Assembly (NCBI GenBank): GCA_051294375.1
Contig: CM119263.1
Coordinates: 31,240,358-31,292,824 of the forward strand
Origin: Paraspadella gotoi
Taxonomy: Eukaryota; Animalia; Chaetognatha
Direction of reading: 5' to 3'
Length of the DNA: 52,467 nt
The translations under genes were made by a program, and so were the position numbers. Positions 6,602 through 42,546 of the stretch are shown piece by piece. A model generated the notes under the pieces. That model had not been told where the DNA came from. It did not search any database and saw only the letters and a list, made by a program, of their open reading frames with translations. Position 1 is the first letter of the stretch; each line of letters opens with the position of its first letter.

Positions 6602-8606
6602 ATGACGATAAATTTAAAATCGATCGTTTCGAGCCTATCAAAAAAACGATATAAAAGGTCAGTTGGGACGCAGTGCCTCTTGGGTGTGACATGCCTCATT
6701 GTCGTCGTCATCAATTGGTTGTTTTTCTCAAGTTCACTTCTCGAAATCTTTCGCCCAAACGGTCGACCAACTTCACTCGTTTCGTTGCGAAGAGACAAGG
6801 TTTTGTTGGGTTTTTTGTTGCGCCGCGAGTACTCGAGGAGCAACTCTGTCACTTTTCGGTCGGTCTGTCCGTCATTCTGTCCCATTTACGTTGAAAATGT
6901 ATGCAATTTGCCTATAGTTGGTTGCTGATTTGTTTAAACAGAAAAAACTACAAATCTAAGATACTGCTAGCGCCGCCTTCAGGCATTACTAAAATTAAAG
7001 AATAAAAGACAGATTTTGATGCTGGCAAAAAGTTTTTAGTTATATCATGTCATATCATATCATGTCATCAAAGGGAAATACACGTGAAAAAAAGTCACGT
7101 TCTTTTGTCTGTCTTTGATTATGTTGGTCCGTGGATAATACATTAATCTTAATTTATTTAATGTCATTCAATAAATTAAGATTAAAAAGTTAAATTTGTA
7201 AAGAAAAAAGGAGAAATGAGGAAAATAAAAAACCTAATGTTGACCTAATCGCTATAGCCGTGCCTTTGGTATGTTGCAGTCCGAGACTGGATTCGGTGTA
7301 CACTGTACAGGACTTCTGCCTTCATCACGACTTCTTTTGTAATTTCATTAATTTGAACCAGGGACGATTCACGACTCCACTGAGCTGGGAGCTAAAATTC
7401 GAGCGAGAGCGGAGGAGGATAAATTTGAGGGACATTCATCCATCGATCGCTGATCATCGATTGGAGAAAAATTTGAAAAATCCTTGTTGGTTCGAAAATG
7501 AGGAGAGAAGCAGTTTATACGAGAATAACCCTTACGCCAAGTATTCCGAATCACTCAAGGAAAATTTTGAGAAATTCGAGAGACTCGAGCGAGACGATCT
7601 TTTCCTGCGCGGACGGAGATTTCGATGCATGCCCTACTTTTACATCTTCGGAGTCCAAAAAAGCGGGACGACGGATTTTTACGAGAAACTCACCTCTCAT
7701 CCGCAGATAGAGACTGGTCCGTTGAAAGAACCCGATTGGTGGATTAGGCGGCGTTTCGGTCTTTTGAACCCCGAAGTCTTTTTTCATCAACAAAGATACT
7801 CGAGATCTTTTCCTCCGGCGACGTTTCGAGATTACTTGGATCTCTACGACGGCGTCGCGATGAAGATATTGAGATCGATCGGTGATCCCGCGATCGAATC
7901 CGATGGTCGCTTCAAAGTCATCGTCGACGCCTCCGTTTGCCTCATGTGGGACAGCGACGGTTGGCTCAAATTCTTAAATTGGCGCTCATCCGATGGATCG
8001 TCATTGCCGTCCCTCATCGCCTCCCAATTGTTCGACCTCAATCCCTCCGCCAAGTTGATCGCTGTGCTGCGGGATCCCGCGTCGAGACTTTACTCCGAGT
8101 ATCGCTTCCGCAGAGATTGTCGGGGCGAGAAGTCTCCTCAGAATTTCCACGAGCTCGTCGTGTCGGCGATAGAGACGTTCGACTCCTGCTTGAGCAACGC
8201 CACGTTGGAGAGCTGCAGTCACGAGCGAGAGCTCAACTCTTTCGAGGGAGACTGTCTCGAAATTCCCTTTCGCCTTCGCGCCGGCCTCTACCACGTCTTC
8301 CTTCGCGATTGGCTCCGGCATTTTTCTCCACGACAGATTCTGCTGCTGAGGATGGAAGACTACGTCCGCGACATCCCCGCCGCTTTGGAGGAGGCGAGAG
8401 GATTTCTCGGCCTCGACCTCGCCTTCCGCGCTGGAGACGAGAAGTTGAAGGGAATTCGGAATCGAGGACGCGTCGATGTCGGGAGAATGAAAACAGAGAC
8501 GGCGGAGCTGCTGAGGAATTTCTATGAGCCGCACAACAGGGAATTGGCCAAATTGTGGCAAGACGAAAGGTTTTTATGGCGAGATTTTGGAACGACCCCG
8601 TCTTAG
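6602..8606 (+). CDS. CHST15: Carbohydrate sulfotransferase 15-like (GalNAc4S-6ST) Golgi type II membrane sulfotransferase
   Basis: Exon 1 6602-6799 (basic tail plus TM LLGVTCLIVVVINWLFF) spliced in phase 0 to 7362 (or 7311); KNPCW, 5'-PSB PYFYIFGVQKSGTTD, 3'-PB LRDPASRLYSEY, C-terminal FYEPHNRELAKL; stop 8604-8606. Orthology within an expanded family is uncertain. Confidence 0.8.
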
Positions 8607-8937
8607 TGATAAATTTTATCCAAAAGGCGTTGATAATCGAGGTTATCAAAACCTCGAACTGCATTCTTATTTTAAGGTTGTTAATTTTGAAGAAAAAAAA
8701 TTATTGGAAAAGAATCTCTTTCCTCTTTTTATTATGTTAACCCTACTAATTTTATAATGTTCTATGAAAATCTTTTTGAAAATTTTTGTTTTGACCGAAA
8801 AAATTTTGTTTATGAATTACTACTTTTTTGTCTCGTGGAATTGTTTCGAATGTAAAAATCAAATTTTTGTATTAAATTATTTGAAGAAAAAATCCATCCC
8901 CGTTTTTAGAGATCAAATTCTTAAAATTGATCATACA

Positions 8938-9240
8938 ATGGAATCAAATGAAGAAGCTGCTAACAAAGAGGCGGGTCGTCCAAAAATGGAAGAGGTTTTG
9001 CAAGTGAATGATACAAAAGCCCAAGGCATCATCCTAATAATCCTGGCTGTCGTAATTATTTTATATTAAATGTAAATGCAAGATGTATTAATTAATCAAA
9101 TAATTGATCAGTTAATTAATCAATTAGTCAATTAATTAATCAATAATTAAATAATCAGTCAATCAATTAAGTTAATCATTATCGGCATTATTCTCATCGT
9201 CGTTATTGCTTTTGTCGTGGTTAGTGACGAAAATACCTAA
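8938..9240 (+). CDS. Possible 60-aa hydrophobic microprotein or relic paralogue of the MS4A-like first exon
   Basis: ATG 8938, donor after 9051 (gtaatt), acceptor aag/9172, TAA 9238-9240; VLQVNDTKAQGIILIILAV resembles VLPVRTTRAQGITHIVLGV of the next gene. Confidence 0.35.
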
Positions 9241-9753
9241 AAACTAACATTTGGGATCAAATTAATTGTCTATTTAATTAATAATTAATTAATTACCGAT
9301 AATGATCGTGGGCAGATCCGACATTGTTTGCTCAAAATTGTTTTATTAGTAAATAGGTTTTAATATATAGTATAATCTCCCTACGGCTATATCTGTAAGA
9401 TGAACCAAAATTTCTCCTTTTTTTTTCATAAAAATAAATATGCTTACAGTAAGGTCCTATTCAAATGCAATAAAAATTTATCTTTTGAAATTCGACCTTG
9501 ACATTGATGAGCACATAATTAAGAAAGTAAGCAAACTGGACTACTCGGATTTTGAAAATAAAAAACGTCAGCGATTTTTTTACCTGGGTGCAAAAATTGA
9601 AGTTGCTATAATTAATCATTTAGCCACAGTATTTGATCTTTTCATTTCACTCCCATTTCAAATCCGTGTATGATGAAAATGTTTTCTTTTAAGATCCGTT
9701 ATTCAATTGTTGAAATAATTTTAAAAATATCTAAGGATACAATATCAATCATT

Positions 9754-11600
9754 ATGCAAACAAATACTGGATTTGGTGGGAGACGAGAAGGAGCGAGCTA
9801 TCAGACGGTTCCATCACCAACGATGTCTCTTGTTTTGCCAGTGAGGACGACAAGGGCACAAGGCATCACCCACATTGTGTTGGGCGTCATGATGGTTGGC
9901 TTTCAGATTGCGGCCATCATCGTCCTCGACAATCAAAACCACATTGAGCACAATCACTCGGACTCTGTTCTTGAGGTTGGCTCCGCCATCTGGTGCGGCC
10001 TCTTGGTCATCGGGTGTGGCATCATTGGATGCTGCGCCGCCGCTTATAAAACTAACAACACTGTGAGCATTTTCATATTATTTGTACGAATTTAAAAAAA
10101 TACAGCTTCTCTTATTTTGATGCTAGAGCGGGTTCAATATAGTATTCCTTAATCTAATACCTGAGGGAGTGGTCCTTTCAGACAATTGAAACATTCTTTG
10201 AAATATTATGCCACTTCATTGAAATGCCAGATACTCTGGGAGTAAATAAACGAGTCTTGATTGAAAGCTTGCAGGGTCCTGCTACGTTATTATCTTTTCA
10301 GGACTTAAACCACTTAAGCCTGTCCAATAAGGCGTAGTGAAAGTTACATACGAAAATTCTAAAAGTCAATTATGAACAAAATACCATCAGTGAACATTAA
10401 TTTGTAAAAAAAATTAATTTTATGTTTTTTAATTTTCGCAGTAGGCTATATTTATATATAGTACTATCCTTATAAAATCGAAAAATTTTAAAATAGGTTT
10501 TCTTAATTTTGAATGCAGATTTGAATTCCTCGTCAAAAGTTGATAAAAGAAAATATAAATCATTTTTAAAAATTCTTTCATTAAGTGGGTTAAAAATTAA
10601 AAAGACTATATTTAATATATAAAAAATTAATTTTCAGCGTATTTCTTTTTATCAACTTTTTATGACGAATCCAAATCTGCAAAAAAATCTTAAAAAAACT
10701 GTTTTGAAATTTTAACATTTATTGGTTTAGTACTAGAATAAATAATTAAATATGGCCTACTGCGTAAATTGTAAAATTTATTATAAATATTTTTATTATA
10801 TGAATGTCTATTAATATAATGTTGTTCGTTCCTCACTTTTAGAATTTTAATTAAAGTTAAATTTAGAAATTTTACTACGCCTTACTGTCCAATGTTTATA
10901 GTCAAGGCTCAGATATCTTATTTATTAAATGATTGGATCATTTTTATATTGGTTATACTAATATGATACTATAATTTTCATGCAGCAGCATTTACATACG
11001 GTATCTTTATAGTATAAAGATCCCGTATGTAAATGCTGCTGCCTGAAAAGAAAGAAAAAAGATTCGTAATTGCAGGTGATTGGGTTTTTGATTTTCAACA
11101 TATTTTCACTGATTTTATCGACGACCGTGTTGGGAATGATGGGTGGGGATTTGTCGCAACGCGATGTGATCTATTGCGATCATCGATGGATCAACGACAA
11201 ATACGAGGCTTATAACTGTTCTCCCTCTTACACGCCTTTGATTGCCATGACCTCCGTTCTCTTATTCGCCGCCTTGGTTGTCTTTTCTATCTCCATCTGG
11301 AGTATCGTCTCTTCATCCATTGCTATTCACAAGAGCAACGCTTGCTGTTGTCGTGGCCGTTGTTGTGTCAAGCAAGAGCCTCCCGTTTATGTGTACGGTC
11401 CTCAGCATCGGACGGTGAGTGACGTCTCGCGACTGGAGACGCATGAAAACGCGATGTCGACGCCTTCGATGGGGGAGGTCACGGAACGGGCTTCATTGGC
11501 TCAAGGATATGTTGCCCCACCGCCTTATGCCCCAGCGATGCCTTTACCGAAAGCTCTCGGTCGAGAACGAGCTAATCCTCCTTATCAACAATTGTACTAG
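9754..11600 (+). CDS. MS4A/CD20-like four-TM protein
   Basis: Exons 9754-10062 and 11076-11600 (GT-AG, phase 0); four hydrophobic segments, GSAIWCG motif, Cys-rich juxtamembrane CCC..CC, C-terminal PPPY. Confidence 0.75.
10150..10960 (+). repeat. Interspersed family C element split by a hAT MITE
   Basis: Homologous to ~28090-28260 and, in reverse, to ~15810-16030, ~36660-36830 and ~50235-50345 (aagcctccatcactcttacaagataatg core). Confidence 0.7.
10328..10884. mobile_element. hAT-type MITE (family B)
   Basis: TIRs TAAGGCGTAGTGAAA / TTTTACTACGCCTTA; 8-bp TSD CTGTCCAA at 10320-10327 and 10885-10892; YARNG terminus typical of hAT. Confidence 0.88.
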
Positions 11601-12311: not shown

Positions 12312-15300
12312 ATGAAGTTCTCCGTCGGGATTCGCCTCTTTTCATGCGCAGCTCCTTTGCTGCTCCGCTGCGTCACGACCCCGCGCCCGCTGCTTCGACG
12401 GACTCCTCTTCCGTCGTTCTTTCACTCCGCCTCCGCGAGACATCTATCGTTAACGGACTCATCTTTGACCGACCAATTGCTGACTTATCACGACGACGAC
12501 GAAGATGACGACGTCATCGCTACCGAGGTTTCCATGGATTGCAAAATCACGTTTCAGGCTCGATCCATCGACGAGTTGTTGGATAGGATGCGGAATCTCG
12601 ACCTGCTGTTGCCGCCGCGAGACTTGAAAATTCTCTTCCGATCGAATCAGCGACTGGCGACCAGTCTTATGCCCAGACCCAAAGTACATTGTCCTTTTAA
12701 TTCCGTTGTTTTATTTTTTTTTTTTTATCTCGCCAGACGGCGTTATGGCGTGATAATCGTTTAGAATTGCTTCTTTGTGCCGTCGTTGACATGGTTGTCA
12801 CGCTTTTTATCGTTGATCTTGTAACGCTTTTGTACATAAGTGGCGTCGTCGTCGTTGTCGTCGTCATCGTTATCGGCGTTCCAAATTATAGATCGCCTTT
12901 TTGATGATTAAATTTGGATGTTTGAAGCTGAAAATTTATATACAGCTTCTCATCATCGATGTCTCTTTTCCCCAGTCTCTGATTCATCGGAAAAAACCGA
13001 GTCTGCAGCTGGCTCTGCAGGGGCTTTTCTTTTTCTTTCTTTTCTCCTGCTGCTTCTGCTTTTTTATTTTTTATTTTTGTCTCTTCTCTCTTTTCTTTTT
13101 TAATTATATGTAGCTCTCTCTCTCTCTCTTTTCCCCAGTTGCTGATTCCTTGGGCTCTGCAGGGGCTTTTTGTTTTTCTCTTTTCTCCTGCTGCTTCTGC
13201 TGCTGCCTTTTGATTTCTTTCTTTTTTTCTGGCTGCTTCTGCTGATTTGTCCGAAAACGATTTGGTTAAAAAATTCACCAAATATTTTTGTTTGCAATTT
13301 AAAGAAAATTCTAAATATCAATCAGAATAATATTTTTTTAAATAAATATTTACTTTATTATTTTATTTTACTTTACTTCTCTTTACTTCCCTTAGTCAGT
13401 CTCATTCAAGTTTCACTTTGTCTTTTGTCTGGGAATGCTGACAGTGTTTAGAGAAGTCGCATTCGATCAAACTGCTCGCTTATGCGGGCTAAAAGTAAAA
13501 CAAAAGTTCCTTCAATAATATCTCTCCAGACTTATTTTTCTTATTTTTTATTTTCCTTTCTATTCTTTCTTTCCTTTCTAATTTTTCTTTCCTTTATATT
13601 CTTTCCTTTATATTCTTTCCTTTATATTCTTTCTTTCTTGCTTTTCTATCCTTTTTTCCTTTTTTCCTTTCTATCCTTTTTTCCTTTCTATTCTTTCTTT
13701 CCTTTCTATTCTTTCTTTCCTTTTTATTCTTTCTTTCCTTTCTATTCTTTCTTTCCTTTTTATTCTTTCTTTCCTTTCTATTCTTTCTTTATATTTATTC
13801 TTTTCTTCTTTTTCTTTCTGTTTATAAATTAATTTTCTTTTCTCAAATTTGAATTTTTTTAGTATTATGGTGGACTAAGATCCACCAACCATTCATCAGC
13901 GGCCATTGGTGCCGGAGGCAAGTCAATCGCGTCCCAACCCAAAGGTCCGGGGTTCTAGCCCGGTGGTCGCCTAGCAGTTAAGAGGGACGGGGCGCTTAAC
14001 CCGCCTGTAACATGGTGTTACAGCCTGATCCGAAGCTCAGGGACTGCTTACATTGAACGGTTCTGTCACTAACACATAACAAATATCACTGTCTCTTCAT
14101 TGGTGAGCCCGACTTCCGAACACAACAGCAACAACACTTTCAGGCGACCTGCCTCAACCTGGCGATGCACTTTCCGCCATCAACACATCAGGCGACATGC
14201 CTTAACTTGGTGACAAACTTTCCACCAACAACAATAATTCACTGAAGAGACACAACAGACTTCTCCCTACCGGAGGGGGGGATGTATGGTGGACTAAAAT
14301 CCACCAACCATTCATCAGCGGCCATTGGTGCCGGAGGCAAGTCAATCGCCTCCCAACCCAAAGGTCCGGGGTTCTAGCCCGGTGGTCGCCTAGCAGTTAA
14401 GAGGGACAGGACGCTTAACTCGCCTGTAACTCGGTGTTACAGCCTGATCCGAAGCTCAGGGACTGCTTATATTGAACGGTTCTGTCACTAACACATAACA
14501 AATATCACTGTCTCTTCAGTATCAAAATTTGTCGTCAAGATTTTTCTTAAGCGATTGCTACGATCCTTATGCTTTTAAGATTTTTTTACATTTTTTTAGA
14601 TTATTACGGTTTATATAAAATTGGTACAACCAATATAAAAAATATCCATTTATTTAACAAATAAGCGGGTAACTTTACTATTCGACATCCACAACCAACT
14701 TTAGTTACTACTGGTCGGTACTTTGTTAATCCATTTAATTTTGTTTTCCCTCGAGCTTCGAATCTCAGTTTACGCAATAATATGAATTTTTTTGTTTAGT
14801 AATACTAATTTTATAATAAATAATAATTGTTTTAAATTTATTTTAATTGCTATTTTTATATTTGAGATAGAAAATGAATTGCTTGTTTACGTACAAGTGT
14901 TATAAAGAAACATGAAATTGTGAATTGTCAAAGCACTGATGAAGGCTTGAATGAAAGCCGAAACTTGTCTGTACCATTAAAATAAAAAACCGTTGATGTA
15001 ATAAGACTTCGTCTTGAATCTCAAAAAAGTTTAATCACAAACTCTTTTTTAAAAATTCTTTCATTAAGTTGATCAAATATAAAAAAACTATATTTTAAGC
15101 TGAAAATAAAAATTTTATGTATTAAATATGGTTTTTTTAAATTTTTAACCCACTTAATGAAAAAGTTTTTAAAAATGATTTATATTTTCTTTCATCAACT
15201 TTTGACGAGGAATTAAAATATGAAATCAAAATTCAGAAAAACCTATTTTGAAATTTTACGATTTTATAAGGATAGTTCTATAAATAAATATAGACTTTTA

Positions 15301-18300
15301 TAGTTTACTACAAAAATTGAAGAACATAAAATTAATTTTTTTTATAAATTAATGTTTACTGATGGTATGTTGTTCATAATTGACATTTAGAATTTTTGTA
15401 TGTAACTTTCACTACGCTCTATTGGTTAGGGCTGGTTTTACAGGGCGCCACACCCGCAGCGGTGTCACCTCGTGGCGACAGCGAGACAGCATGTTCATAT
15501 AGTCCAGAGCTTTGGATCTGGCAGTAGACCCATGCCTACAGGCGGGTTACCCGGTCCATCCCACTTTCAACATGACAACCTCAGGGCTCGAACCAGGGAC
15601 GCACATTGGGATGGTGCATTAGTCCACTGAGCTACTGAGGCGCTGCAAAAGAAACAGCTTTAATCCATCTGTGGTGATAGGACCACCAGAAGGGGTTGTT
15701 AGGGTTAAGGTGGTTTATTTTTGCGTAGCGAGATTTTTATATGTCGCTTATAAGAAGCAAAAAAAAAATAACCGACCGAAAAATCTTGGTGGGCGAATGT
15801 AAAAAGAGCCAAATAAGCTATCTTGCCCCTGGACAGGCTTTGGTGGTTCAAAGCCTCCATCACTCTTACAAGATAATGATATAGCAGGTCTCTGCAAGCT
15901 TTCAATCAAGACTCTTTCACAGTCGAGTTTATTCATTCCCAGAGAACTTGGCTTCCCTATCAATGAAGTGGTATAATGTTTCAATTGTATTAAAAGACCA
16001 TTCCCTTAAGTATCAGATCGGGGAATACTATATTGTATTTCGCACTAACATCAAAATACAAGCTGAATTTTTTGAAATCTTTTTTATTAAAAACAGTATT
16101 AACATAATGAAATTGGTACAACCAATAATTATAAAAATTATATAAAGATTATGACGGTTTATAATTTTTTTTATGTAAAAACTACTACAAATTATGATTG
16201 ATTTTTATAAAAGTGTACGATCATTATTTAGTACTGGGTTCCGCGTACAAACGTTGCATTTTTAGACCGCTAAACATAATATTTTTGCCTTTCACGCATT
16301 AAACAACTCTCGATAATTTTTACCAAAAATCTCAAGTAAAGTCACGACACATTTAGGAAAAAAACGACTCTTTCCACTATTGTTCAGTTGTTACTTAAAA
16401 TGTTAATTAACTTTGTACCACAACACAAATTAGGCCGAACGAAGGATTGGTTAGAAACATCTCCACCCATTTCTAATGATAAAATAGTACCATTTTGGCA
16501 ACTTTTAGCCAAAAAAATTATGTCCATTTTTACTTACGACTTCTGATTTGAAAGCCAAGGAAAGTTGAGAAAAATTTTTTACTTTGGAAATCCGTTCTTT
16601 CTTATCTTTTTTACCTCTGGGTAAATTTATTAGCTTAAATCATTTATAGTTTGCCTATGAATTAATTTTAAAGTTAACAAGTCAAAAAGTTGGAGTTTCA
16701 GTCTTTATCATAATTTGTTAAACAAAAATAAAGCAAATTGGTTAAAATTAACAGAAAATATAGCCTATTGAATAAGCTTTTAACACCTATAAAATTATCA
16801 AAAAAACTTTTTTGGTTTAGCCACAAATAATTTTTAAAGACGTCTTTTAATTTGTGACTTTTTGTGACTTGCATTTATTTTTGATAAAGAGAATATTTTC
16901 AACTCATTTATTAGTTTCAAAAGATGAGGTACATACTGACCTTGATTAAAAAAAACCGCATCCTTTTAACCCAATGGAAAGCGTCAGGACCCTTTTTTTC
17001 TCAGAATCGACAGATTTTGCGGAAAAATTTTCCGCAAAATCTGTCGATTTATTAAATTTGCTAGGCAACCAAAATTGAAAAAAAAAATCATGCGCTACCG
17101 TTCATTTTCTTTCTTATAATGCATTTTAAATATTTTATTTGATTTGGCTCGATGTAAACGTAGTGAGAGGAAATAGGAAAGGGAAAACAAGAAAAGGAGA
17201 AGGGGAGAGAATGAAAGAGAGGGTGAAAGGCAAAAAAACGAAGGAAAATGGGGAAAAAATAGTGAAACAATTGTAAGGTAAGAAAAGAGGGGAAAAATGG
17301 AAAGAAAAAGATGGGAAAAATGGAAAGAAAAAGAGGGGGAAAAAAGGGAAAGAATGAAGATGAGAAAAAAAGGTGAGGAAAGTGCATGAGTGACAGAAAA
17401 TGGTAGGGGCCAAAAAAATGGTAAGTGACAGTGTGAGAAGTAAGGGAGGAAAGAGGAAGAGAAAAATATAAAGTAAGAGAAGAAAAGAGGTGAAGAACAA
17501 TAATCAGGAAAAGCGTATGAAGGAAAAAAAATTGTATCAGATAATTTGGCGTCTTACCTAAAATCTTTTGTGTAAGTAAAAGACATGAGGATTCTTATAA
17601 GGAATTCGATCTTTAAAAATCATCTGTACCATAAAAATTCAAGCATACTTTTTTCTAAAATTAAGCAGTTAATGAGATTAGATTGACAATCATTGAAGAA
17701 ATCATGTCTTACCGTATTTTTAACTCATAGAAATTTACATGGGAAGTTCTAAGTGATAAGAAGGAGATAACTTGAGACTACCGTTTTTTTAAATGAAGAA
17801 AGCTTCGTACTAACCAATGAGATCAAAAAATATGGTAATTATTGAAGTTCAGATTTCGTTGTTTAAAAGATACTGATTGTATGCGAAACCACTGTTATTA
17901 GTTAGCCTCAGCTGAAAATAAATCTATCTCCAAGACGCCGAGTTGATAACGTAATTGTTGATGTAATCGCCAATTGATGAGAATGTGTGGTTGATGTGGT
18001 TGTTAAGAACTTAGTAATGATTGATTTTTATAAAAGTCTACGATCATAATAAGTGAAAAATTTAGATATGGGTTCTCATCTTTAAGATCTTTGAAATTGT
18101 TACGTTTCATATTGATTGGAATATTTTTGTTTGAATTTCCTTCTCATTATGATTTACTGCAATATACAAATTAGAATATAGTACTTACTGCAATATGAAA
18201 ATTAATATATAATATACTATATTCTAATTTGCATATTGCAGTAAGTCAAAATATTAAAAAAATTTAAAAAAAAAATACTTGAATCCATATGAAACATGAC

Positions 18301-21300
18301 AGTTTAAAAGATCATGATGATGAGAAGCTATATCTTAATAATCAATTATTATTGCGTCAATAATCAATTACTACATCAATAATTCATTATCACATTAATC
18401 ATTCATTTTTTTTCCGGATTTTTTTATTAATTTTCTTTGATAGTAACGTCTGGCGAGATAACTTTACTTTTAAGATTTTTTTGTAAGATTTAAAATGAAA
18501 TACTCTTCCCCCCTCTTTCCCACCAAAGTCCCGATGTTTCTTGCTGGAGATCGAGCATCTTTCGCTGATTTGCCTGAAGGACCGCTGCATTATTCTCAAT
18601 CCCCGCGACGAGATTGTCAAGAGTTTTGTGGAAGATTTATGCTACTATCGATTGGGCAACAAGGATTCGACCGAGGAAAGGTAAATATAGTAAAGCTTGT
18701 AATATGGTTGTTACTAAGTCTACTTGAGTACTTAGTCCTTAAGGCGCCCCAGTGATAAAAATGATATCATAAACATAAGGGTCTATCATCAAAGGAATTT
18801 GAATGGTGATAATTGTTAATTTTTCTTTGCACGGGAAAGTGGAGAAAAATATTTTCATCTCCTAGTTGCATTGCGAACAAGGATGAGAAAATTTTTAATT
18901 GATCTCCCCGAGATACTGATACAGTCCATCCTCTTACTTTCTCTTAGGAAATCATTTTTTCATAAATTATAAGTGATATTATGGTAACAGCCGGGTTGCC
19001 TGTGATGACCATTGGGATGGGGCATCTTCACTGTTAGCTTTGGGGCTTCCGATCCTTAGTGACGTTTGGGATGTTGCCTTCCCCTCTGAGCCAATGATAT
19101 TGGCTGAACGATGGTGGTCGTGAGGCCTCAATATTATCTCCTTCATATGCACAAAGAAAAGTATAAAAAAAAACCAAATCCTGTGGCCTCATGTCCACCA
19201 TCGTTCAGCCAAATCCATTGGCTCAGAGAGGGGAACACACCATCCCAGGCATAGTGTTCCATCCACAGTCCTAACGACTTCCCTCTGCGTTGGCAAAGCT
19301 AGACCGTCCTAGGGTAACCGCGCCAGTGACTGGAGGCGTCACTGAGGGTCGAAAGCCCCAAAGCCAACAGTGAGATGCCCCATCCCAATGGGCATCACAG
19401 GCAACCCGGCTGTTGCCATAATCCCTATTTTAACTTGCAGTCCAAAGCCCAAGACTAAGGGTTCCAACAAACCGACGGCGCGAGACTATCACAAGATGTT
19501 AACATGCAGCATCCAAAAGATGGACTTTGAACACGTTGTGCTCGAACAGGCATTGGCCAACATCACCGCCAGATACACTAGACACGTGGAACTGACGAAA
19601 CCAACTCTGGAGCTGCTTCTTTATCAAATTGAACTCGATCCCGCTGTCTCCATGCTGCGCCGACTGTTGGCCTTCAGAAAGAGTTTGATTGAGTTTGAAA
19701 CGGGTGTCCATCAGGTAGAATGGTCAAGATTGGAATTCCTGTCTTAGTAGTTATTAAGGCGTCGTTAGTTGCAGATCAAAAATTCGAATAGTTCATGAAC
19801 ACTGAAGTCTTGTACTAACGAACAATGATATCTTTGATAGACGGGGGAGGCGGATCCTCGTATCCGCTGACGATATATAAAAAATTTTATCGTCGCAATC
19901 GCTAAGCACTTGCGATGATATTGTATTGCTTTTGCCCATAAGTGGCGTCGTCGTCGTCGTCGTCGGCGTTCCAAATTATAGATCGCCTTTTTTATGATTA
20001 AATTTGGGTGTATGAAGCTGAAAATTTATATACAGCTTCTCATCATCGATGTGCTTAAAATTGAGTCTCGACAGTTATTAAATATGTTTTGTTTACGTTT
20101 TATCAAAACAAACAAATTTTCCTTTTTATTTTCATATTTGTTTCTCTCTCTCTTTTCTCTTTTAATTACATGTCTCTCTCCCTCTCTCTTTTCCCTAGTC
20201 ACTGATTCATAATCATAGGGAAAAAAACGAGCCTGCAGCTGGCTCTGCAGGGGCTTGTTCTTTTTCTCGCTTTTCTCCTGCTGCTTCTGCTGCTGCCTTT
20301 TGAGTCTGCAGCTGGCTCTGCAGTGGCTCTTTCTTTTTCTCTCTTTTGAATTAGGATTGAACTCGTAAAATTAGGCATCGCATTCGTGCATGTTATCATT
20401 TTGCTATTTTTCAGAAACTGTAAGTTTAATTTTTTTCCGTACTTTATTATATTTTCTTTATTAACAATCGCAAAATAGAATTTTTCTTTGTTTATAATTT
20501 AATTTTCTTTTTTTTAGTATCAAAATTTGTCGTCAATCCAGATTTTTCTTATGCTATTGCGACGATCCTTATGCTTTTAAGATTTTTTTAAAATTTCTTA
20601 ATTTTCGCATACGCCCATAGTTATACATAGTATCTACCATAGAAAATGTCAAAATTTAAAAATAGTTTTTTTGTTTTTGTTTTAAAAGCAGATTCGAATT
20701 TCTCATAAAAGTTGAAAAAAGAAAATGTCTTAATAAAAAATTTTTTCATTAAGTTAGCTAAAAATTAAAAAAATATATATATATACTAAAATTAAATTAG
20801 AGGTTAACTATAACAGTTTTTTAGGATTTTTACCCACTTAATGAAATAATTTTTTAAAAAGAGTTTTCTTTTTATCAACTTTTCGTGAGGAATTCGAATC
20901 CGCTTTCAAAATTAAGAAAAATCTATTTTAAAATTTTAACATTTTCTATGGGCGTATACGAAAATTGAGAAATTTTTAAAAAAAATTATATATCAATGTT
21001 TACAGATTCTACTTGATTTTAATAATTTTGCTACGCTTTAGTAGTTATTGATGGTTAAATCAAATAATTTCTTTGTTTAAGTTGTGCCACGTCTTGGAGA
21101 ATCTCCTCAACAGCGACGAGGATATGGCGGGATTTTACCTGACTTCGCCCGTCGAAAATATCGCCGACCACAACGAAGTGGAGCTTTTAGTTGAAGCTTA
21201 TAGTCATGACCTCGGTGATATCGTCAGTGAAATCAAGACGATGAAGGTCGGTGACATGGCTTATCTTCCTGGGATTTCAGGTTTCGTAAAGTACTTGATT

Positions 21301-22979
21301 AAAGTTATTGGAAAATTTGGTTTACAACAACGGCTGTTTTAAATTGTAGAGAAAAATAACGGACATGTTTTGATTTTTTTGTAAGAGTTCATCAATGCAA
21401 AACAAAAAGTTGAAAATCAGTTTAAAAAAATATTTTGTGTGTGTGAGAGAAATGAAACAATTTAACTTGGTCATTTACCAAACCTTACCCTTACCAATGT
21501 ACTGTGGATAAAGCGCTAAGTGGGGCTGAAGAGTACTATCCGCAACTTCTTCAACCCCCTCGAGCAGCGATGGAACGGGTCCTGGGCTTGGAACCAGGCT
21601 TAAGGGTTTTCCACGCCCCCCAAATAGGGACCAACTCCAGAGATAATATAAAATTTCGACTATTATCAAAGTATTTTTAGTTGTCTTGACTAAATATTTA
21701 AGCAATCATTTTCAAAAAAAATTTACATAATACGTCTTGATTAATACATTAAATATTACTTGTCTTTTTTTACATTATAAAAAAATTTTTTTGAAATCTT
21801 AAAATATAAAAAAATGATAAAATCATCGAAAAATATTTAAAATAGAATTATACTTTGTGTAGACAACTTTTTATGAGCTATCTGAATCTAGTCTTACAAT
21901 TTTAAAATTATCAAAAAAAATTTTGGCCTTTCCTATTTATAAATAATATTAAAAAAATAATTTTTTGGGTATAGAGCCACATAAGAAATGTTTTTGTCTA
22001 TTGAAAGTATACTTTCAAAATGTATAAATTTTCGTTTGAGCATGTAGTCATTCTAAATTTTTGACTCACCCCATTGAGTGGAGCTACCCCTACCCTAAGG
22101 CGGCTTAAGGCCGTCCTCACGCTTCCCGTAGGGTAGGTACTAAGTGGTCATGTGCTGATGGCTTTATTCAATGAGCCACCGGGTCACGACTGAAGGTGTC
22201 ATGCTTATAGTCGGGGTGAACCTAGGCAATGCCCGACTACAGTACTACAATAGCAAATTAAAAACTCTGTATTTTTACTGTAAATTATTTGGTTAATTAA
22301 ATGAGTTTGTAAAAAAAATAAGACAAATTGAGAAAAAATGAACTCGGAAAGAGAAATATGTAGATGGTGTAGTTGCTCCCCCCACAATTAAATTCCTCAT
22401 TAAAACCACTTTTCTTCAAGAACATTTTTTTTTTTTTTTTTTAAGGACATGGTTGAGGAAACAAACCAGTTCATCAACACTCACCTCGACACGGTCCGCA
22501 ATCGCCTCATACGCATGGGCCTCTTCATGGACATGGCCATGATGTCGTTGACCGTCTCCGCCGTAATTGCCAGCGTCTTTGGAATGAATCTCGTCAACGG
22601 TCTCGAGAACAGGCCGGCCGCTTTCTTCGTCGTCGTCAGCGTCATGACCGGATTGACGGTCGGCGTCTATTCTATCATCTTCATCAAATACGTTCGCAAC
22701 ATCGGCGACGCCTCCACGGCCCATTCCTACGTGGCCCTCAAGAACTTCTTTCAATACGTGGACGAGTTGGATCGTATCGTGGAGTTGAAGGGGAAATCCA
22801 GTTTCACCAAGACGGATTTCAAGGAAGTTCTCGTCGGCCTCACGGGGACTAAAGTGACCAGCGACGAGGCGGAATTCATCTTTAAGATGTTCGACGTTAA
22901 TAAAGACGGGACCTTGAATCTGGAAGAAGTAAAACTGGAGTCGGCGAAGAGGAAAAACAGGAAGATTAACATGTGGTGA
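12312..22979 (+). CDS. MRS2: Mitochondrial Mg2+ channel MRS2 (CorA family) with C-terminal EF-hand
   Basis: Exons 12312-12683, 18529-18680, 19441-19714, 21082-21246, 22446-22979 join in frame; Arg-rich targeting peptide, LPPRDL, FEHVVLE, LLNSDEDMAGFYLT, EVELLVEAY, LDTVRNRLI, FGMNL signature, two TMs, DVNKDGTLNLEE. Confidence 0.9.
13899..13970 (+). ncRNA. tRNA-derived head (degenerate Pol III A/B box) inside the LTR; second copy 14318-14389
   Basis: 72 nt; acceptor-like stem GCGGCCA/TGGTCGC; T-arm CCGGG-GTTCTAG-CCCGG; anticodon arm is not intact, so not a functional tRNA. Confidence 0.7.
13973..14048 (+). ncRNA. Twister ribozyme, P5-type circular permutation (5' LTR)
   Basis: P5 AGCAGU/ACUGCU; AAGAGG-G-A-CGG; U^AA-CCC-GC; P3 UGUAAC/GUUACA; P4 CCUGA-UCCGAAGC-UCAGG; pseudoknot CGG/CCG; predicted cut between 13997 and 13998. 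Confidence 0.75.
14392..14467 (+). ncRNA. Twister ribozyme, P5-type (3' LTR); one pseudoknot mismatch
   Basis: Same fold as 13973-14048, but CAG replaces CGG in the pseudoknot; predicted cut between 14416 and 14417. Confidence 0.65.
14933..14972 (+). ncRNA. Minimal type I hammerhead ribozyme (Penelope-like element type)
   Basis: GCA-CUGAUGA-A-GGCUU-GAAUGA-AAGCC-GAAAC-UU-GUC^-UGU; predicted cut after 14969; AATAAA ~10 nt downstream. Confidence 0.75.
15040..15420 (-). mobile_element. Truncated hAT MITE (family B), inverted relative to 10328
   Basis: Reverse complement of ~10330-10620, ending ...gtatgtaactttcactacgc; other end not found. Confidence 0.7.
15433..15690 (-). mobile_element. Solo LTR or SINE-like element with tRNA head plus twister, a divergent relative of the TRIM LTR
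   Basis: Minus strand: 5' hairpin TGGTG-GTCCTAT-CACCA (LTR has TGGTGGA-CTAAGA-TCCACCA), A box TAGCTCAGTGG, B box GGTTCGAGCC, then twister; boundaries approximate. Confidence 0.65.
15490..15574 (-). ncRNA. Twister ribozyme, P5-type
   Basis: CAUGUU-G-AAAGUGG-G-A-UGG-ACCGGG-U^AA-CCC-GC-CU-GUAGGC-AUGG-GUCUAC-UG-CCAGA-UCCAAAGC-UCUGG...AACAUG; compensatory changes relative to the LTR copy. Confidence 0.75.
15810..16030 (-). repeat. Interspersed family C copy
   Basis: Matches 36660-36830 and 50235-50345 in the same orientation, and 10150-10325 and 28090-28260 in reverse. Confidence 0.7.
18065..18333. mobile_element. AT-rich foldback/MITE
   Basis: Imperfect arms gatatgggttctcatc...gtttcatattgatt / aatccatatgaaac...gatgagaagctatatc, plus inner arms tttactgcaatat / atattgcagtaag. 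Confidence 0.6.
18978..19422. mobile_element. GC-balanced foldback element with ~150-bp inverted arms
   Basis: attatggtaacagccgggttgcctgtgatg... / ...catcacaggcaacccggctgttgccataat; right arm has a ~90-bp insert (~19250-19337); possible TA TSD. Confidence 0.8.
19755..21040. mobile_element. hAT-type MITE (family B) with nested HINE-like element
   Basis: Ends TAAGGCGTCG / GCTACGCTTTA; 8-bp TSD GTAGTTAT at 19747-19754 and 21041-21048. Confidence 0.85.
19885..20588 (+). mobile_element. Full-length non-autonomous Helentron (HINE/DINE-1-like), family A
   Basis: 5' subTIR ATCGTCGCAATCGC (19889-19902) with nearby partner TTGCGATGAT; (GTC)n microsatellite; 3' subTIR GCTATTGCGACGAT (20553-20566), short CTTA..TAAG hairpin, T-rich flanks, no TSD. 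Confidence 0.72.
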
Positions 22980-23952: not shown

Positions 23953-30934
<6,982 letters not shown>

Positions 30935-32305: not shown

Positions 32306-35270
32306 AATTGACTACTGCACCCATTTTTAAAACCGCGGAAAAATCGAATAATCGAGTTAATTTTAATGACTAGAAATAAAAAAGCGCAGTAAAACAAACG
32401 TAAAGATAACAAATGAGCAATGATCAATGAACGGAATTTTTGTTCCATTCTTTTGGGGGCCCTGCGATTAAACTCCACAAAGCTGATAAAAGATATGAAT
32501 ATTATTGAGTGACGAACATCTTTTTGAGATTTACAAACGAACGACATCATTCTCACTTTTAAAGAAACTCGTCATAAGATGTTGCAAGCCGATTTGGTCC
32601 CAAAGCTTGGAAAAGATTGACTTGACCAGCTGAAAATATTTTTTGACAAAGATTATTATGTGGTGAAATTTTATTAAAAAGATAATTTCTGTCACCGTTT
32701 GAATCGTTATTTGGTTGAGATATGACTTTATCATCTCTGTTTTTCTACCAGCAAAGTTTTGTGGCGTCAGTTTGTACACGGGCTAAAACAAGAACTTAAT
32801 ATTTAACAAAATAAATGGACGAATTCTGGTCGCATTTGTTTAAAATGTATATCTTAAATGGTGAATATAAAAATTTTCCCTTAGAAAATGTGCTTGGTCA
32901 TGTTCAGAGTTAACTAGGTTCTGCGGTGACAACTCTAATCTCTGACAACTCTAATCTCTCACTCATCTCTCTTCATCTCTGCGTTGACAACTTTACAGAC
33001 GACTTCATATTAGAAAATGCTCTTAAGTTAAGACATTAATGCAAATGATCTCATGAAAAAAAATTTCTTTTTTTTAAAAAAAATTCTGTTCATTCTTTGC
33101 CCCCCTGGAGTGACCCTGTATCGTACCTCAGGGGTAAAATATTGAAAATCGCCTTGATTGTCCCATTTCTACGGCTATTGGGATACTGAACGCAAAATCG
33201 TATCAAATTTGGTTCAGTGATTTGGTCAGAACTGATTCTCGGTTCGAAAAAACCTTCTGTAATCTCTGACAACTCTAATCTCTCTTCACCTCTGCGTTGA
33301 CAACTCTAATCTCTGGTTTCTTCCCTCTCATCTTTCGCCACTTGTGCTTTGGCTTTACGTGCCAAGGATCCTTCTTCGGTTTGGGTCTTTCCTTTCAATA
33401 AAATATAAATAAATATTTTATATGCAAATAATTTGAGAACGCAGACTTGTCACCTCTTGAGTGGTGATCCTTCGATACTCAAACCAATCGAACCATCCTT
33501 TTCTTCTCTTTTCTGTCGTCGATCTTTCCACCTGAGATTTGAAATCATTTCCCGTTGAGTCTTCTTTCCTTCCTTCTCTTTCCTTTTTTCCTTCAGCTCT
33601 ACGAGTCTACGACCCGGCCATGAGTTTCATCCGGGGGTTTCATCATGTCGTTCCTCGTTGCCGTCGGGTGGTTCAGTCCTCAAGATTATTCGTATTAAAA
33701 TGAACAAATTTGACCTTTTTTTTCGGCAACTTTTTTTTTAACTCACTCAATGATCGGGAATCCACGAAGGTTTTATCTCGAGTCGCCAAGAAAAGAATCG
33801 ACGCCATGAGCCATTTTTCTTTTTCTTTCCATCTCATGATCTTTTGGAAAAGAAAATTTCTTTTTTAATCGATACCTAGTCTTAAATTCTGTTCGGTCAA
33901 ACAGTACGTAGTTTTTGTTTAATTCATCTCAGTGAACTGTCATGTAATTAAATTGAAAATGTTCAGGTAGTTTCTACAATGTCTTTTCTTGAATTAAATA
34001 TGGTTTAGTCTTGCAATCATTGTGATCAAACTTTTTTTTACTTCATTTCCAAATGATTATAATAACTCAAGTTTTTCTTTCTTATCTTACATTATACATA
34101 CTCTTATGCTACTCAAAATACTGTTATAATACTTTAATATATTTATGATTTTTATTTAAAAGTATGATTAGTAATATTTAAACTTTCATAATAGTAATCT
34201 TAGGTAATTTGTTATTAGTATAACGGACATATATGGCACTATCACATTTTTAGTATGATTTACACATTTCACCGTAAATGTGATCCTACTCTATTTTAAG
34301 TAATTTTGAAATTCAACATAATTTAACAAGTGACGCGATGAAATATGGCACGAGTCTAATTCTTAATATTATTTAGACTATTGTATATTATAAGATAACA
34401 TACGTAGCTCCAGCAATCTGGCAATACATCATTCCTCTACATCTCTCTCCTCCACATCCATGAATTCGTTGCCATTTTCTCTTCTTCAAAATGATTATTT
34501 CCCGCAAAACGAAAGATGTCGATCTCCTCTCTCTCTTCTTCCTTCAACCGCGCCCAATCTCGTCACGACATCTCGCTTCTCGAATAGAATATCATTCTGT
34601 TACGTCGTTCGGTTTCATTCGACTCTGTTCGTGTCAAGACTCATAGTTTTTCTTCCACCCGCCCGCTCGATCGGGGCCGCGTTATTTTCTTTGTATTTGG
34701 TCTTTATCTGTTGGCTCGATCGGGGCCGCGTTGAGATCCGCTCCGTCCCGTGGACTCGACAGCCCGGACTTTGAAGGAAGAGAGAGAGAGAGAGCCACGT
34801 TGGGTCTCTTTAAGCTGTCGTCGTCTCGTTTGAATTAATTGGTGATGATATGTCTTAATATTGAGTTCATGGTGTCGTCGTTAATTTCTCGTGGGACGAT
34901 TTTAATTATTTTCTTGTTTTATTAATTGATATTTATTATATTGATTACTCGATTCGTTTTTGACGCTCGGGCGTGAGTTCGCAAGTCACATCCGCCGACG
35001 ACCGCCCTTTCACTATTTATAGAATTGGTTCAACCGATATGATAAATTAGCCATTCATTCCACAAATAAAAAATAAACAATCTTTTAATATTTTTCTTGG
35101 TCGTCGACATTTTTTCTTTAGTTGCGAAAATCTCTTTTTTTTTGTCTTAAGTTTTATCTTTGTCAGTTTATTATACATTGTCCACATTCCCAGGTCATTT
35201 GATATAAATTCATCCGCTCAATACTTTTTACATCGAATCCAAATCCAAACTTTTTCTTTTCTTTCTCACG

Positions 35271-38200
35271 ATGATTCTTAAACGCGACAAGAAAGACGAA
35301 GAGGATCTCGTCAACCCTTTCCTCAATCTGGACAAGGCCACGGTCCTGCAGGAGGCGAGGACCTTCAACGAGACGCCAATCAACAATCGGAAATGCACGA
35401 CCATATTGACCAAGATCCTCTTCATCCTCAATCAAGGGGAGCAGCTCGGCACCACCGAGGCGACGGAGGCCTTCTTCGCCATGACCAAGCTGTTTCAGAG
35501 CAAGGACCTCACCGTCCGCCGCCTCTGCTATCTCACCATCAAAGAGATGGCCGACATTTCCGAGGACGTCATCATCGTCACGTCCTCGTTGACCAAGGAC
35601 ATGACGGGCAAGGACGACCTCTTCCGCGGCCCGGCCATCCGCGCCCTCTGCAAGATCACCGACGCCTCCATGATCCACGCCATTGAGCGCTACATGAAGC
35701 AGGCGATCGTGGATCGAGTCAACGCCGTCGCCAGCGCCGCTCTCGTCTCTTCGCTCAAGATGATGAGTTCGTCGCCGGATGTAGTGAAGCGTTGGGTCAA
35801 CGAGGCGCAGGAGGCCGTCAACAGCGATAACGTCATGGTGCAGTATCACGCTTTGGGTGAGTTACTTGGGTGATATCGCGTCTTCGGTGTGAGATTCTAT
35901 CAAGTCTTCTTGGTCATTTCTTTGCAATGTTTCAAAAATGTAATTAAAGATATTGGGCGACGAATATTCAATCACAAATATTTTCAGAAAACAACTCAAA
36001 ACGAGATGACAAATCGGAGAGATTATCTAAAAATGATTCTTATCACGAATCATAATTAAACTAATTTAATTTTAGGTTAATTTTGGTTTAATTAAAATAA
36101 GATGATTTAGACCATTTACAAATAATAAAAAAAATATTTTGTCCTTTTACAACCAAATTCACTTATGATGTTAGATTCTAATTAAATTAATTTTCCTCAT
36201 GCATGGAAGCATTTTAATATTTAACGATATATAAGAAATGATTAAAAAAATTTTAAAGAAATTTAAATTTTTAAAAATGGATTCTGATAAATTATTAACA
36301 AGTTAGATAAAGGTTAGTACTACAAATCATCATCATCTTTCATTAGATTTTATAGTTTTTATTATTTTTATAGATAAATCATTAAAATTTCCAAAAGTTC
36401 CATAATAACCTTCATCTAACTTTTCAAGCTCTATCAGAATCCGTTTAAAAAAATTTACATTAATTAAAAAAAAATTTTGACATTTTATAGTATTTGTTTA
36501 ATATAAAATAGCTTTCATGCTTTTAACTATAAGATAAATCTTGAATTTTTTAAAATTTTTACCAACTTTAATAAACACATTAACAAAATTTATACTGGAC
36601 TTCTGTTAGTTTGTAACCTGTTCCGCCTTAGTGTACAATAATGCAACTTTTTATGAAATTGGTACAACCAATATAAAAATTATCCATTCATTTAATAAAT
36701 AAGCTATCTTGCTCCTGACTTTAGACGGGCCTCGGTGGTTTAAGGCCTCCATCACTCTTACAAGATATAGACATAGACTCTCTCAAAGTCTCGTTTATTC
36801 ACTCCCAGAGTTCCTGGCTTACACGAGTCAGTATTTTGATGATCTTTAATTTAAAAACTTTTCCTTTCCCCCCCCCCCAATTCTCCAAGGCCTCCTGTAC
36901 CACATCCGTCGCAACGACCGCCTGGCCGTCTCCAAACTCGTCGCCAAATTCACCAAATCGAGTCTTCGGTCTCCTTACGCCGTCTGCCTCCTCATCCGCA
37001 TCGCTTGCAAGTTGATCGAGGGCGATCCCGATGGAAAGGCTTCGCAGGTCCGCCTTCCTAATATTTATTATTATTATTATTTATTGATTAAAAATTTTTT
37101 TTCTTTCGCTTTCAATCGCTTTATTTACCATTTGCAGGAATACTATTCCTTCATCGAGAGTTGCCTCCGCCACAAGAGCGACATGGTCATCTACGAAGCC
37201 GCCCACGCCATCGTCAACATGAAGGACACTTCGCCCAAAGACCTCGCGCCGGCCGTCTCTGTGCTGCAGCTCTTCCTCAGCTCGCCGAAGCCGACACTCC
37301 GCTTCGCCGCCGTACGGACGCTCAACAAGGTGGCCATGCGTCACCCGGCCGCCGTCACCGCCTGCAATCTCGATCTGGAGAATCTGATCACCGACGTCAA
37401 TCGGTGAGGGATGATGTGTCAGGGATAGTGAAATGTTTGTGTGAAAAGTTTTTTCGAAATCTGTGCTCAATTTAGAATTTTTGTTTGTAAGAAAATTTAG
37501 CTTAATTTTACTTTCGCCGACCGCGGTTTTGGCGCCCTTTGAAAAATTACTTAAAAATAGTGATTTTTTTAAAAAAATATATAAAAAAAATTTACCCAAT
37601 TACCCTAACCCTAAACCCTCTTAACCCTAATCACCCCTAACCCTAAACCACCTCTAAACCACCTTTAACCTTAATCTCTCCCTAACCCCGGTCGGCGAAA
37701 GTAAAAGTAACTCGAAAAGGGCTTTATAATTCTTAGTCCGTTGCCTAGTTGCATACGTTTTTATCAGTAATAAGACTGTTTTTTTGATGATGCATGTTTT
37801 GTGGCTGAGGTAAAGAAAGATGCAAGATGGATGTTTCAGTAAATTTTTAATTGATGCAAATCATATATTTGCCCGCGGTTAAGTATTTATGTAGGATAAT
37901 GAGGTTGAGTGTGTTCAGGACATTCGTCATTGCAAGCATCGCTGAGCTGCAAATGAGAAGAATCGTTAATAACTAACAATTTGGAAATGAATATTTTTGT
38001 TTTATTTTATTTTTGTTGACATTTCCTCTTTTTCCCTTGAAAGTTCGATCGCGACGCTTGCGATTACGACTCTCCTCAAAACGGGAAGCGAATCTTCGGT
38101 GGATCGACTCATGAAGCAAATATCTTCCTTCATGAGCGAAATCTCTGACGAGTTCAAGATCGTCGTCGTCCACGCCATCGCCTCGCTCTGCTCCAAATTC

Positions 38201-42198: not shown

Positions 42199-42546
42199 TG
42201 AAGAGGACTTCTCTCGTTTATTATCATTAAATATAGATGATTTACTTATTACTTTTATTCGCTCTCTCTAGTCTCTAGTCGCTGGTCGTTCATTAAGTTT
42301 GGAGGAACTCATTTGCGGGAAAAATGTTTTATTTTACTTGCCAGTGAATAAATTATAGTATATTTTCTTCATTTAGAACACGACTTATTGAAAAAAACTT
42401 ATTATTAATTGTTGTACTTTGGCTTAGCTAATTGCTACTACTATAGTCATCAGAGTTGCACGCAAAGTCTATCATTTTTTATTATTGCCAGTTCTCTCCT
42501 TTTTCTCTTTGTCAAAACTTTGTTCCCTTCGACTCTCGATCCGGCG

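Follow-up and report, generated by a model that had tools for sequence, protein, structure and literature searches.

Both long terminal repeats (LTRs) of a small retroelement in the genome of the chaetognath Paraspadella gotoi contain a non-canonical type-P5 (circularly permuted) twister ribozyme fold with predicted self-cleavage, in which the P1 hairpin has given way to a linker of six nucleotides. The element lies in a stretch of 52,467 nt (assembly GCA_051294375.1, contig CM119263.1, positions 31,240,358 to 31,292,824), which is called the window here and whose positions are used for all coordinates; a third copy of the fold is present in a different element of the window. The palindromic linkers suggest a dimer-retrozyme model, in which P1 would form between the linkers of two copies and efficient cutting would occur only as a double ribozyme; judged from sequence and predicted folds, we give this model slightly less than an even chance.

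Three sites with a type-P5 twister fold

The window was searched with a structural descriptor consisting of G-A, a strand for T1, an unconstrained stretch of 3-25 nt where P1 would lie, N-A-A, a P2 strand 3 or 4 nt long in which one bulge was allowed, G-C, a P4 of 4 bp and the matching loop. Exactly three sites match: 13986 (+), 14405 (+) and 15560 (-). In 100 block-wise dinucleotide shuffles of the window, the mean number of sites with a perfect T1 was 0.08 (two observed, a number reached by none of the shuffles), and the mean number of sites with at least two of the three T1 pairs was 0.36 (three observed, reached by one shuffle of 100). The three folds and their parts are:

13973-14048 (+): type-P5 twister fold, copy 1 (5' LTR), from descriptor and pairing check
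13973-78/14043-48 (+): copy 1, P5
13982-85 (bulge 13983)/14000-02 (+): copy 1, P2
13986 (+): copy 1, predicted general-base G
13988-90/14030-32 (+): copy 1, T1
13991-13996 (+): copy 1, linker GGCGCU
13997..13998 (+): copy 1, predicted cleavage site U/A, from its position in the twister consensus
14003-04/14035-36 (+): copy 1, T2
14005-23 (+): copy 1, P3
14024-28/14037-41 (+): copy 1, P4
14392-14467 (+): twister fold, copy 2 (3' LTR), from descriptor and pairing check
14410-14415 (+): copy 2, linker GACGCU
15495-15575 (-): twister fold, copy 3 (third element), predicted cut at 15549/15548
15555-15550 (-): copy 3, linker ACCGGG

All three copies have the catalytic G, the A and the U/AA site in L1, the conserved L4 and the T2 pseudoknot. 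T1 is complete in two copies, with one two-sided change, and broken in copy 2; P4 has 5 bp, also with one two-sided change, and P5 holds the termini with 6-7 bp. Standard pairs fill 52 of the 54 pair cells across the three copies (22-46% in controls with slid register), and two of the 18 pairs show two-sided changes (C-G to U-A in T1, U-A to A-U in P4). The copies represent two lineages, not three independent observations.

Two helices depart from the twister consensus. The initial annotation had reported a gap of 6 nt between the pseudoknot strand and the cleavage site in all copies, and the descriptor, unconstrained in this region, returns exactly these linkers in place of the consensus P1 hairpin. 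The statement that no P1 hairpin fits into 6 nt was too strong: one base pair closed by a tetraloop can form, but it is destabilising in the energy model, at a cost of 3.9 kcal/mol. P2 is as had been described at all three sites, with the strands CCC, CUC and CCC (copies 1, 2 and 3) pairing with G-N-GG around a 1-nt bulge, so that there are three pairs and not four; the bulged base varies (A, A, U) while the three paired G are invariant.

The expectation that standard covariance models score the motif poorly was borne out. An Rfam scan of the entire window at E<=1 gave no twister match, and there was none at E<=10 when the 5' LTR and the third copy were each searched as a short stretch; copies 1 and 3 do not reach the gathering threshold of the type-P5 model RF02684 (37.6 bits). 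As positive controls served five canonical P5 twisters of phages (four of them distinct; contigs L120, L121, L127, L130 and L134), which were those of 17 pattern matches in viral contigs that had P2 4/4 and P4 4/4: all five score 44-59 bits on RF02684, and all carry a P1 hairpin of 18-25 nt and a 4-bp P2. As these controls pass RF02684 and the window copies give no match, the motif of the window is non-canonical.

The missing Rfam match is also the first of the points in favour of there being no ribozyme at all, that is, of a structured segment of a short interspersed element (SINE) or LTR that resembles a twister by chance. The covariation is not significant against shuffles (60/500) with three rows only, and ARAGORN, at a relaxed threshold, also draws the stretch as a cloverleaf. 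On the other side, the catalytic and pseudoknot bases are all ordered and in register, at a chance rate of 0.08 per 52 kb; none of 98 viral and prokaryotic pattern matches passes the same pairing test (T1 3/3 plus P4 4/4); and, by eye, the P2-T2-P3 stretch resembles that of Schistosoma twisters (Table 1 of PMC8501958). A chance resemblance is therefore very improbable.

The pattern scans yielded no convincing relatives: seven of the 98 matches have T1 3/3 and P4 3/4 and were taken as chance, and 8/8 viral and 13/13 metagenome matches, judged by eye, have no P4/L4. Blastn of the 5' LTR against phages found no match, nhmmer found no fourth copy within the window, and Rfam matches to miRNAs and snoRNAs, with scores under the gathering thresholds, were rejected.

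The P3 stem (14005-14023; 15541-15522 on the minus strand) opens with CUGUA, as do the type-P1 twisters of Schistosoma (Table 1 of PMC8501958), and copy 3 retains their U-U mismatch at the second pair of P3. The shared start and mismatch suggest a permuted descendant of an RTE-type twister.

Copy 2 differs from copy 1 at several critical positions: the middle T1 pair is mismatched (14408), the palindrome of the linker is broken (14411) and one P2 pair is a wobble (14420). By our own mapping, the T1 mismatch affects the base equivalent to G48 of Osa-1-4, one of four positions at which every substitution gave a relative activity below 0.2 (PMC5113685), and copy 2 is for this reason probably impaired. 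This insertion is thus probably half-disabled, with a 3' ribozyme that is likely damaged. The two LTRs differ at 8 of 234 positions, five of them inside the ribozyme (13989, 13992, 14001, 14012, 14013), just as the initial annotation had counted; an enrichment in the ribozyme was rejected (binomial p = 0.075 for a 75-nt target), and the P3 loop region accounts for two of the five.

The element with the twister fold is a TRIM

With 653 bp, no coding capacity, two LTRs and the usual replication signals, the element has the features of a terminal-repeat retrotransposon in miniature (TRIM, <1 kb):

13862..13865 (+): left target-site duplication (TSD) GTAT, repeated at 14519-14522
13866..14099 (+): 5' LTR, 234 nt, TA...CA ends, 96.6% identity to 14285-14518
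13899..13970 (+): tRNA-like head with a 7-bp acceptor-like stem (ARAGORN, relaxed threshold only)
13907-13918 (+): degenerate box A, in the tRNA-like head
13951-13961 (+): box B with one mismatch, in the tRNA-like head
14100..14284 (+): non-coding internal region, 185 nt
14100..14113 (+): primer-binding site (PBS), tRNA-Trp type
14272..14282 (+): polypurine tract (PPT), from the sequence
14285..14518 (+): 3' LTR, direct repeat of the 5' LTR
14519..14522 (+): right TSD GTAT

The borders are well defined: the host repeat also occurs without the insertion, at 2835-2922 and 20498-20585, where GTAT is present once, and the loose ends of contigs of the family cluster at 14285 and 14099/14518. The PBS matches the tRNA-Trp PBS of Gypsy-32_NVi and Helenus-2_SyJa at 13 of 14 bases (Fig. 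S2 of PMC10886601), and a 4-bp TSD together with a Gypsy-type PBS is characteristic of Helenus elements (TRIMp3) of animals. In each LTR, the tRNA-like segment stands immediately 5' of the ribozyme; ARAGORN with default settings does not detect it. Among the family variants listed, 13967 T>C and 13970 C>T preserve the pairing of the acceptor-like stem. By predicted fold, each LTR has a ribozyme motif, as in a retrozyme; it is a twister and not the type III hammerhead of retrozymes, and the Rfam scan gave no hammerhead match.

Two further structures were observed. The 3' end of the LTR (14090-14099) is complementary to an internal sequence (14243-14252), so that the PBS of the predicted circle is enclosed by a long stem. 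A TGGTGG...CACCA hairpin lies 15-25 nt upstream of the tRNA-like head both in the LTR element (13868-13887) and in the third element (15689-15670, minus strand).

Palindromic linkers and a proposed dimer-retrozyme model

The linkers of copies 1 and 3, GGCGCU and ACCGGG, are self-complementary, and their tetranucleotide cores differ (GCGC and CCGG): what the two lineages have in common is thus self-complementarity and not sequence. The self-duplex of GGCGCU is predicted at -8.3 kcal/mol (6 pairs) and that of ACCGGG at -8.1 kcal/mol, which places them among the best 1.1% and 1.3% of all 4096 hexamers, the best 4.7% and 5.5% of hexamers of equal G+C content and the best 11.7% each of the permutations of their own letters; the broken palindrome of copy 2, GACGCU, reaches only -2.1 kcal/mol. 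When isolated copies are folded, a dimer in which two ribozymes have swapped halves scores better than two monomers that lack P1, both for copy 1 (-50.9 versus -39.2) and for the third copy (-38.3 versus -28.0), and the minimum free energy (MFE) fold of the monomer buries P2 and T2, with P2 pair probabilities of 0.0.

In the dimer-retrozyme model, transcription by RNA polymerase III (Pol III) would begin at the tRNA-like head of the 5' LTR and extend across the element, where TTTT runs are absent. Within this transcript, the two LTR ribozymes would swap halves, the 5' half of each pairing with the 3' half of the other in a nested arrangement with the linkers paired centrally. Cuts at 13997/8 and 14416/7 would release a monomer of 419 nt, which a tRNA ligase would circularise; RtcB has been reported to circularise animal retrozyme RNA in vitro. 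A Gypsy-type reverse transcriptase, primed by tRNA-Trp at the PBS, would then run round the circle and restore both LTRs, following the model for plant retrozymes (PMC4918200). The circle would resist re-cutting, as it holds a single ribozyme, and dimer dependence would likewise largely spare solo LTRs and host read-through RNA. Dimer dependence, if true, accounts for the way in which a fast ribozyme can be part of a highly abundant repeat and spare both host RNAs and its own circle. The proposal of the initial annotation that the ribozyme is weakened and spares host transcripts is plausible in this form, with the palindromic linker suggesting dimer dependence.

Several results weigh against the model. 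The palindrome test spans two lineages, with a joint value of about 0.014 under the strictest control, and the folding energies are nearest-neighbour energies in which pseudoknots are unscored throughout. A free co-fold of two copies (-69.4) differs from the swapped twister. In the natural transcript with two LTRs the swapped form (-181.5) is outscored by two separate twisters (-189.4), and the free MFE (-208.2) is better than both twister folds; the altered linker of copy 2 contributes to the penalty of the swapped form. Folding energies are thus equivocal on dimer versus monomer. P1 is dispensable in other twisters and a dimer is not needed in principle (PMC5408937). Box A of the LTR head lacks the TRGCY/YGG motif of Kojima, and box B has one mismatch, with GGTTC present; the absence of a TTTT run, considered as evidence for Pol III, was rejected, being also found in 35% of shuffles. 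Lastly, the predicted circle is 53% paired, compared with more than 70% for RNAs of the retrozyme type (PMC4918200).

The better score of two separate twisters favours a monomeric mini-twister, in which P1 has shrunk to a tether, each copy cuts itself, and the palindromes are chance or form a weak hairpin; the element would still be a twister retrozyme. We consider this unlikely, but it stays a strong rival because loss of P1 and bulges in P2 are known to be tolerated: twisters without P1 cut at near wild-type rate (PMC5408937), and imperfections of P1 and P2, bulges included, had no negative effect on cleavage in a survey of 1948 natural type-P1 twisters (PMC11662667). Moreover, a 2-bp micro-P1 that uses U-1 and a triloop can be drawn in all copies (G-U/G-U, G-U/A-U and A-U/C-G). 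These pairs are destabilising and have probabilities of at most 0.01, however, and the tolerance data concern open-ended type-P1 or bimolecular constructs and not a covalent tether of 6 nt (PMC11662667). The monomer MFE also blocks P2, and self-complementary linkers are top-ranked in both lineages.

A wider claim goes beyond the dimer itself: a natural obligate-dimer twister, with P1 formed in trans from the palindrome, would count its own copies and be cut solely in transcripts that have two LTRs or tandem copies. It would drive the first animal LTR retrozyme (a TRIM with a tRNA promoter and a 419-nt circle) and would be one member of a class of twisters, widespread in animal retroelements, that is unseen by current models. 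We put this forward with clear reservation, as possible and not as probable. Since the Rfam P5 model gives no signal, similar ribozymes may be common and uncounted.

Copy 1 represents the family

Family members were collected from public assembled contigs of three runs of one organism (X2, X4 and X9) and one run of another organism (X10). The numbers of records on the element are 19,167 (X2), 14,503 (X4), 1,136 (X9) and 2 (X10), and the copy-1 form dominates this very abundant family. In X2, the summed depth, which is not equal to copy number, is 4.6 million over 13984-14007 and 19,082 at 14408, and from this low depth the copy-2 alleles are a small minority in the family.

Among the 40 of 78 variants listed, those in the span of the copy-1 ribozyme are at 13973 (P5 pair kept) and 14013 (P3 loop), both common and neutral for the fold. 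The single row of the indel table lies outside the ribozyme, and the best 15 of 105 joints have a largest depth of 1,017. The initial annotation had named a normal P1 in most family members as a finding that would speak against it; there is no linker indel among the variants listed, and as far as these show, the short linker is the state of the family.

In most of the rows listed, the family members have TAT before the 5' LTR and ATA after the 3' LTR. In X2, 21 contigs continue through GTAT, and the flanks hint at a preference for RTAY/ATAT targets.

The third element and a possible passenger origin of the twister

Copy 3 is part of an element on the minus strand with the following parts next to the ribozyme:

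15576..15646 (-): tRNA-SINE-like head, with box A TAGCTCAGTGG (15634-15624) and strict box B (15594-15584)
15431..15494 (-): tail, different from that of the LTR element, merging into another repeat at ~15430

This third element is about 70% like copy 1 over 112 nt, and its box A matches Kojima's TRGCY/YGG motif. It is single-copy in the window. The upstream hairpin that it shares with the LTR element would fit the solo LTR of another TRIM related to this one, but neither LTR ends nor a TSD were found, and we prefer to regard it as SINE-like.

An element of this kind opens the way to a passenger origin: a twister-bearing tRNA-SINE could have landed in the LTR of a TRIM, which would use only its promoter and make linear LTR RNA, with a ribozyme that is weak or idle. 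The third copy resembles such a SINE, with boxes A and B that are cleaner than those of the LTR, and an origin of Helenus by SINE insertion has been proposed (PMC10886601); the blocked monomer folds fit a passenger too, as do the mutations in T1, linker and P2 of the 3' copy of this insertion. Damage after insertion is, however, expected in any copy, and damaged alleles are rare in the family. Furthermore, the TRIM and the third element share the twister core and its pairings, some pairs having changed on both sides, whereas their tRNA heads and tails have become different. We regard an idle passenger as quite unlikely, more so than the monomeric mini-twister.

Surroundings in the window

The TRIM and the third element both lie in or against AT-rich inverted-repeat elements, which resemble miniature inverted-repeat transposable elements and form a family with copies at 10319-11051, 15043-15430, 20498-21027 and 48140-48780. 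Pieces of host genes (sulfotransferase, CD20-like, EF-hand, adaptin N, SPC25 and BLTP3A/B) span 7194-11600, 22404-22979, 35208-37407, 42409-43386 and 46255-49608, and a 21-nt minisatellite is located at 29173-29645.

Comparison with known systems

The element fits the definition of a TRIM, has a likeness to Helenus and shows the architecture of an LTR retrozyme, yet it has no hammerhead and its ribozyme falls below the Rfam P5 threshold.

With type-P5 twisters (RF02684; PMC5408937, PMC10085705), the fold shares the order of elements, the G-A before T1, the U/AA site, T1 and T2, P4 with its U-C-C-N-A-A-G-C loop and the P5 end. It differs by the palindromic 6-nt linker in place of an 8-bp P1 hairpin, by the bulged 3-bp P2 in place of 4 bp, by the addition of the P3 hairpin, by its location in an animal retroelement and not in phages, and by the blindness of RF02684 to it. 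The twister permutations listed in PMC10085705 are P1, P3 and P5 only. The suggestion of the initial annotation that this is a new minimal variant holds in that the fold is non-canonical and missed by Rfam, less so in its two unusual features, as the cited work on P1 loss and P2 bulges (PMC5408937, PMC11662667) already describes both as tolerated. By themselves, a short P1 and a bulged P2 would be of modest importance; of greater value are the hypothesis of a palindromic P1 formed in trans and an LTR element that combines a twister with a tRNA-like head.

The T-variant twisters of Perere-3 in Schistosoma (PMC8501958) are likewise twisters with a poor P1 in an animal retroelement, with a similar P2-T2-P3. 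They were named in the initial annotation as P1-less counterparts, but the likeness does not extend to topology: the T-variants belong to type P1, their P1 is open and supplied by flanking DNA, their P2 has 4 bp, and they mark the 5' end of an element without LTRs, whereas the fold described here is permuted, internal to an LTR and has a covalent linker. For RTE elements, PMC7761336 refers to unpublished twisters that are truncated yet active, and PMC8501958 shows such ribozymes for Schistosoma.

Helenus/TRIMp3 elements (Kojima 2024, PMC10886601) are also TRIMs of <1 kb with tRNA-like LTR sequence, PBS, PPT and a 4-bp TSD, and Helenus-2_SyJa has the same tRNA-Trp PBS. In the element of the window, a ribozyme follows the tRNA-like part, the LTR begins with TA and not TG, and box A is degenerate. 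Twister has no mention in Kojima's text, and motif searches of the supplement gave no twister context, although line breaks or its remaining parts could hide one; for Naiads, PMC8557442 reports no canonical hammerheads and, by a text search, has no mention of twister. In the literature searched, to which subscription papers may add, we found neither a natural dimeric twister nor any account of twisters in TRIMs, Helenus, their LTRs or tRNA-SINEs.

Plant LTR retrozymes (Cervera et al. 2016, PMC4918200) are non-coding and have one ribozyme per LTR, a PBS, a PPT, a 4-bp TSD, Gypsy-type signals and a monomer set by two cut sites, all as here. The element of the window differs in being from an animal, in having a twister and not a type III hammerhead, a tRNA-Trp and not a tRNA-Met PBS and a tRNA-like head, and in being shorter (234-nt LTR, 419-nt monomer), with a circle that is predicted. 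According to a 2026 preprint (10.64898/2026.07.22.740005), LTR retrozymes are still mainly a matter of plants and of type III hammerheads; if our reading is true, they would extend from plants and hammerheads to animals and a twister, and be joined to Pol III TRIMs. The Sm-alpha SINEs of Schistosoma (PMC6765202) also combine a Pol III promoter with a self-cleaving ribozyme that parts promoter from body and need tandem copies, but have a hammerhead and are not LTR elements.

The closest parallel to the proposed dimer is found in the dimer-dependent hammerheads of amphibian retrozymes and Penelope-like elements (PMC7229834, PMC6765202), in which an essential helix is cut to about one pair and a palindromic tetraloop and which, like the element described here, set two ribozyme copies in one transcript. 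The axolotl HHR_Amex1, for example, has one pair and a palindromic tetraloop; its monomer cleaves to 6% and its dimer much better (PMC7229834). These belong to another ribozyme class, and dimer dependence is demonstrated there and predicted here; if the prediction is true, a twister has converged on the copy-counting trick of minimal hammerheads.

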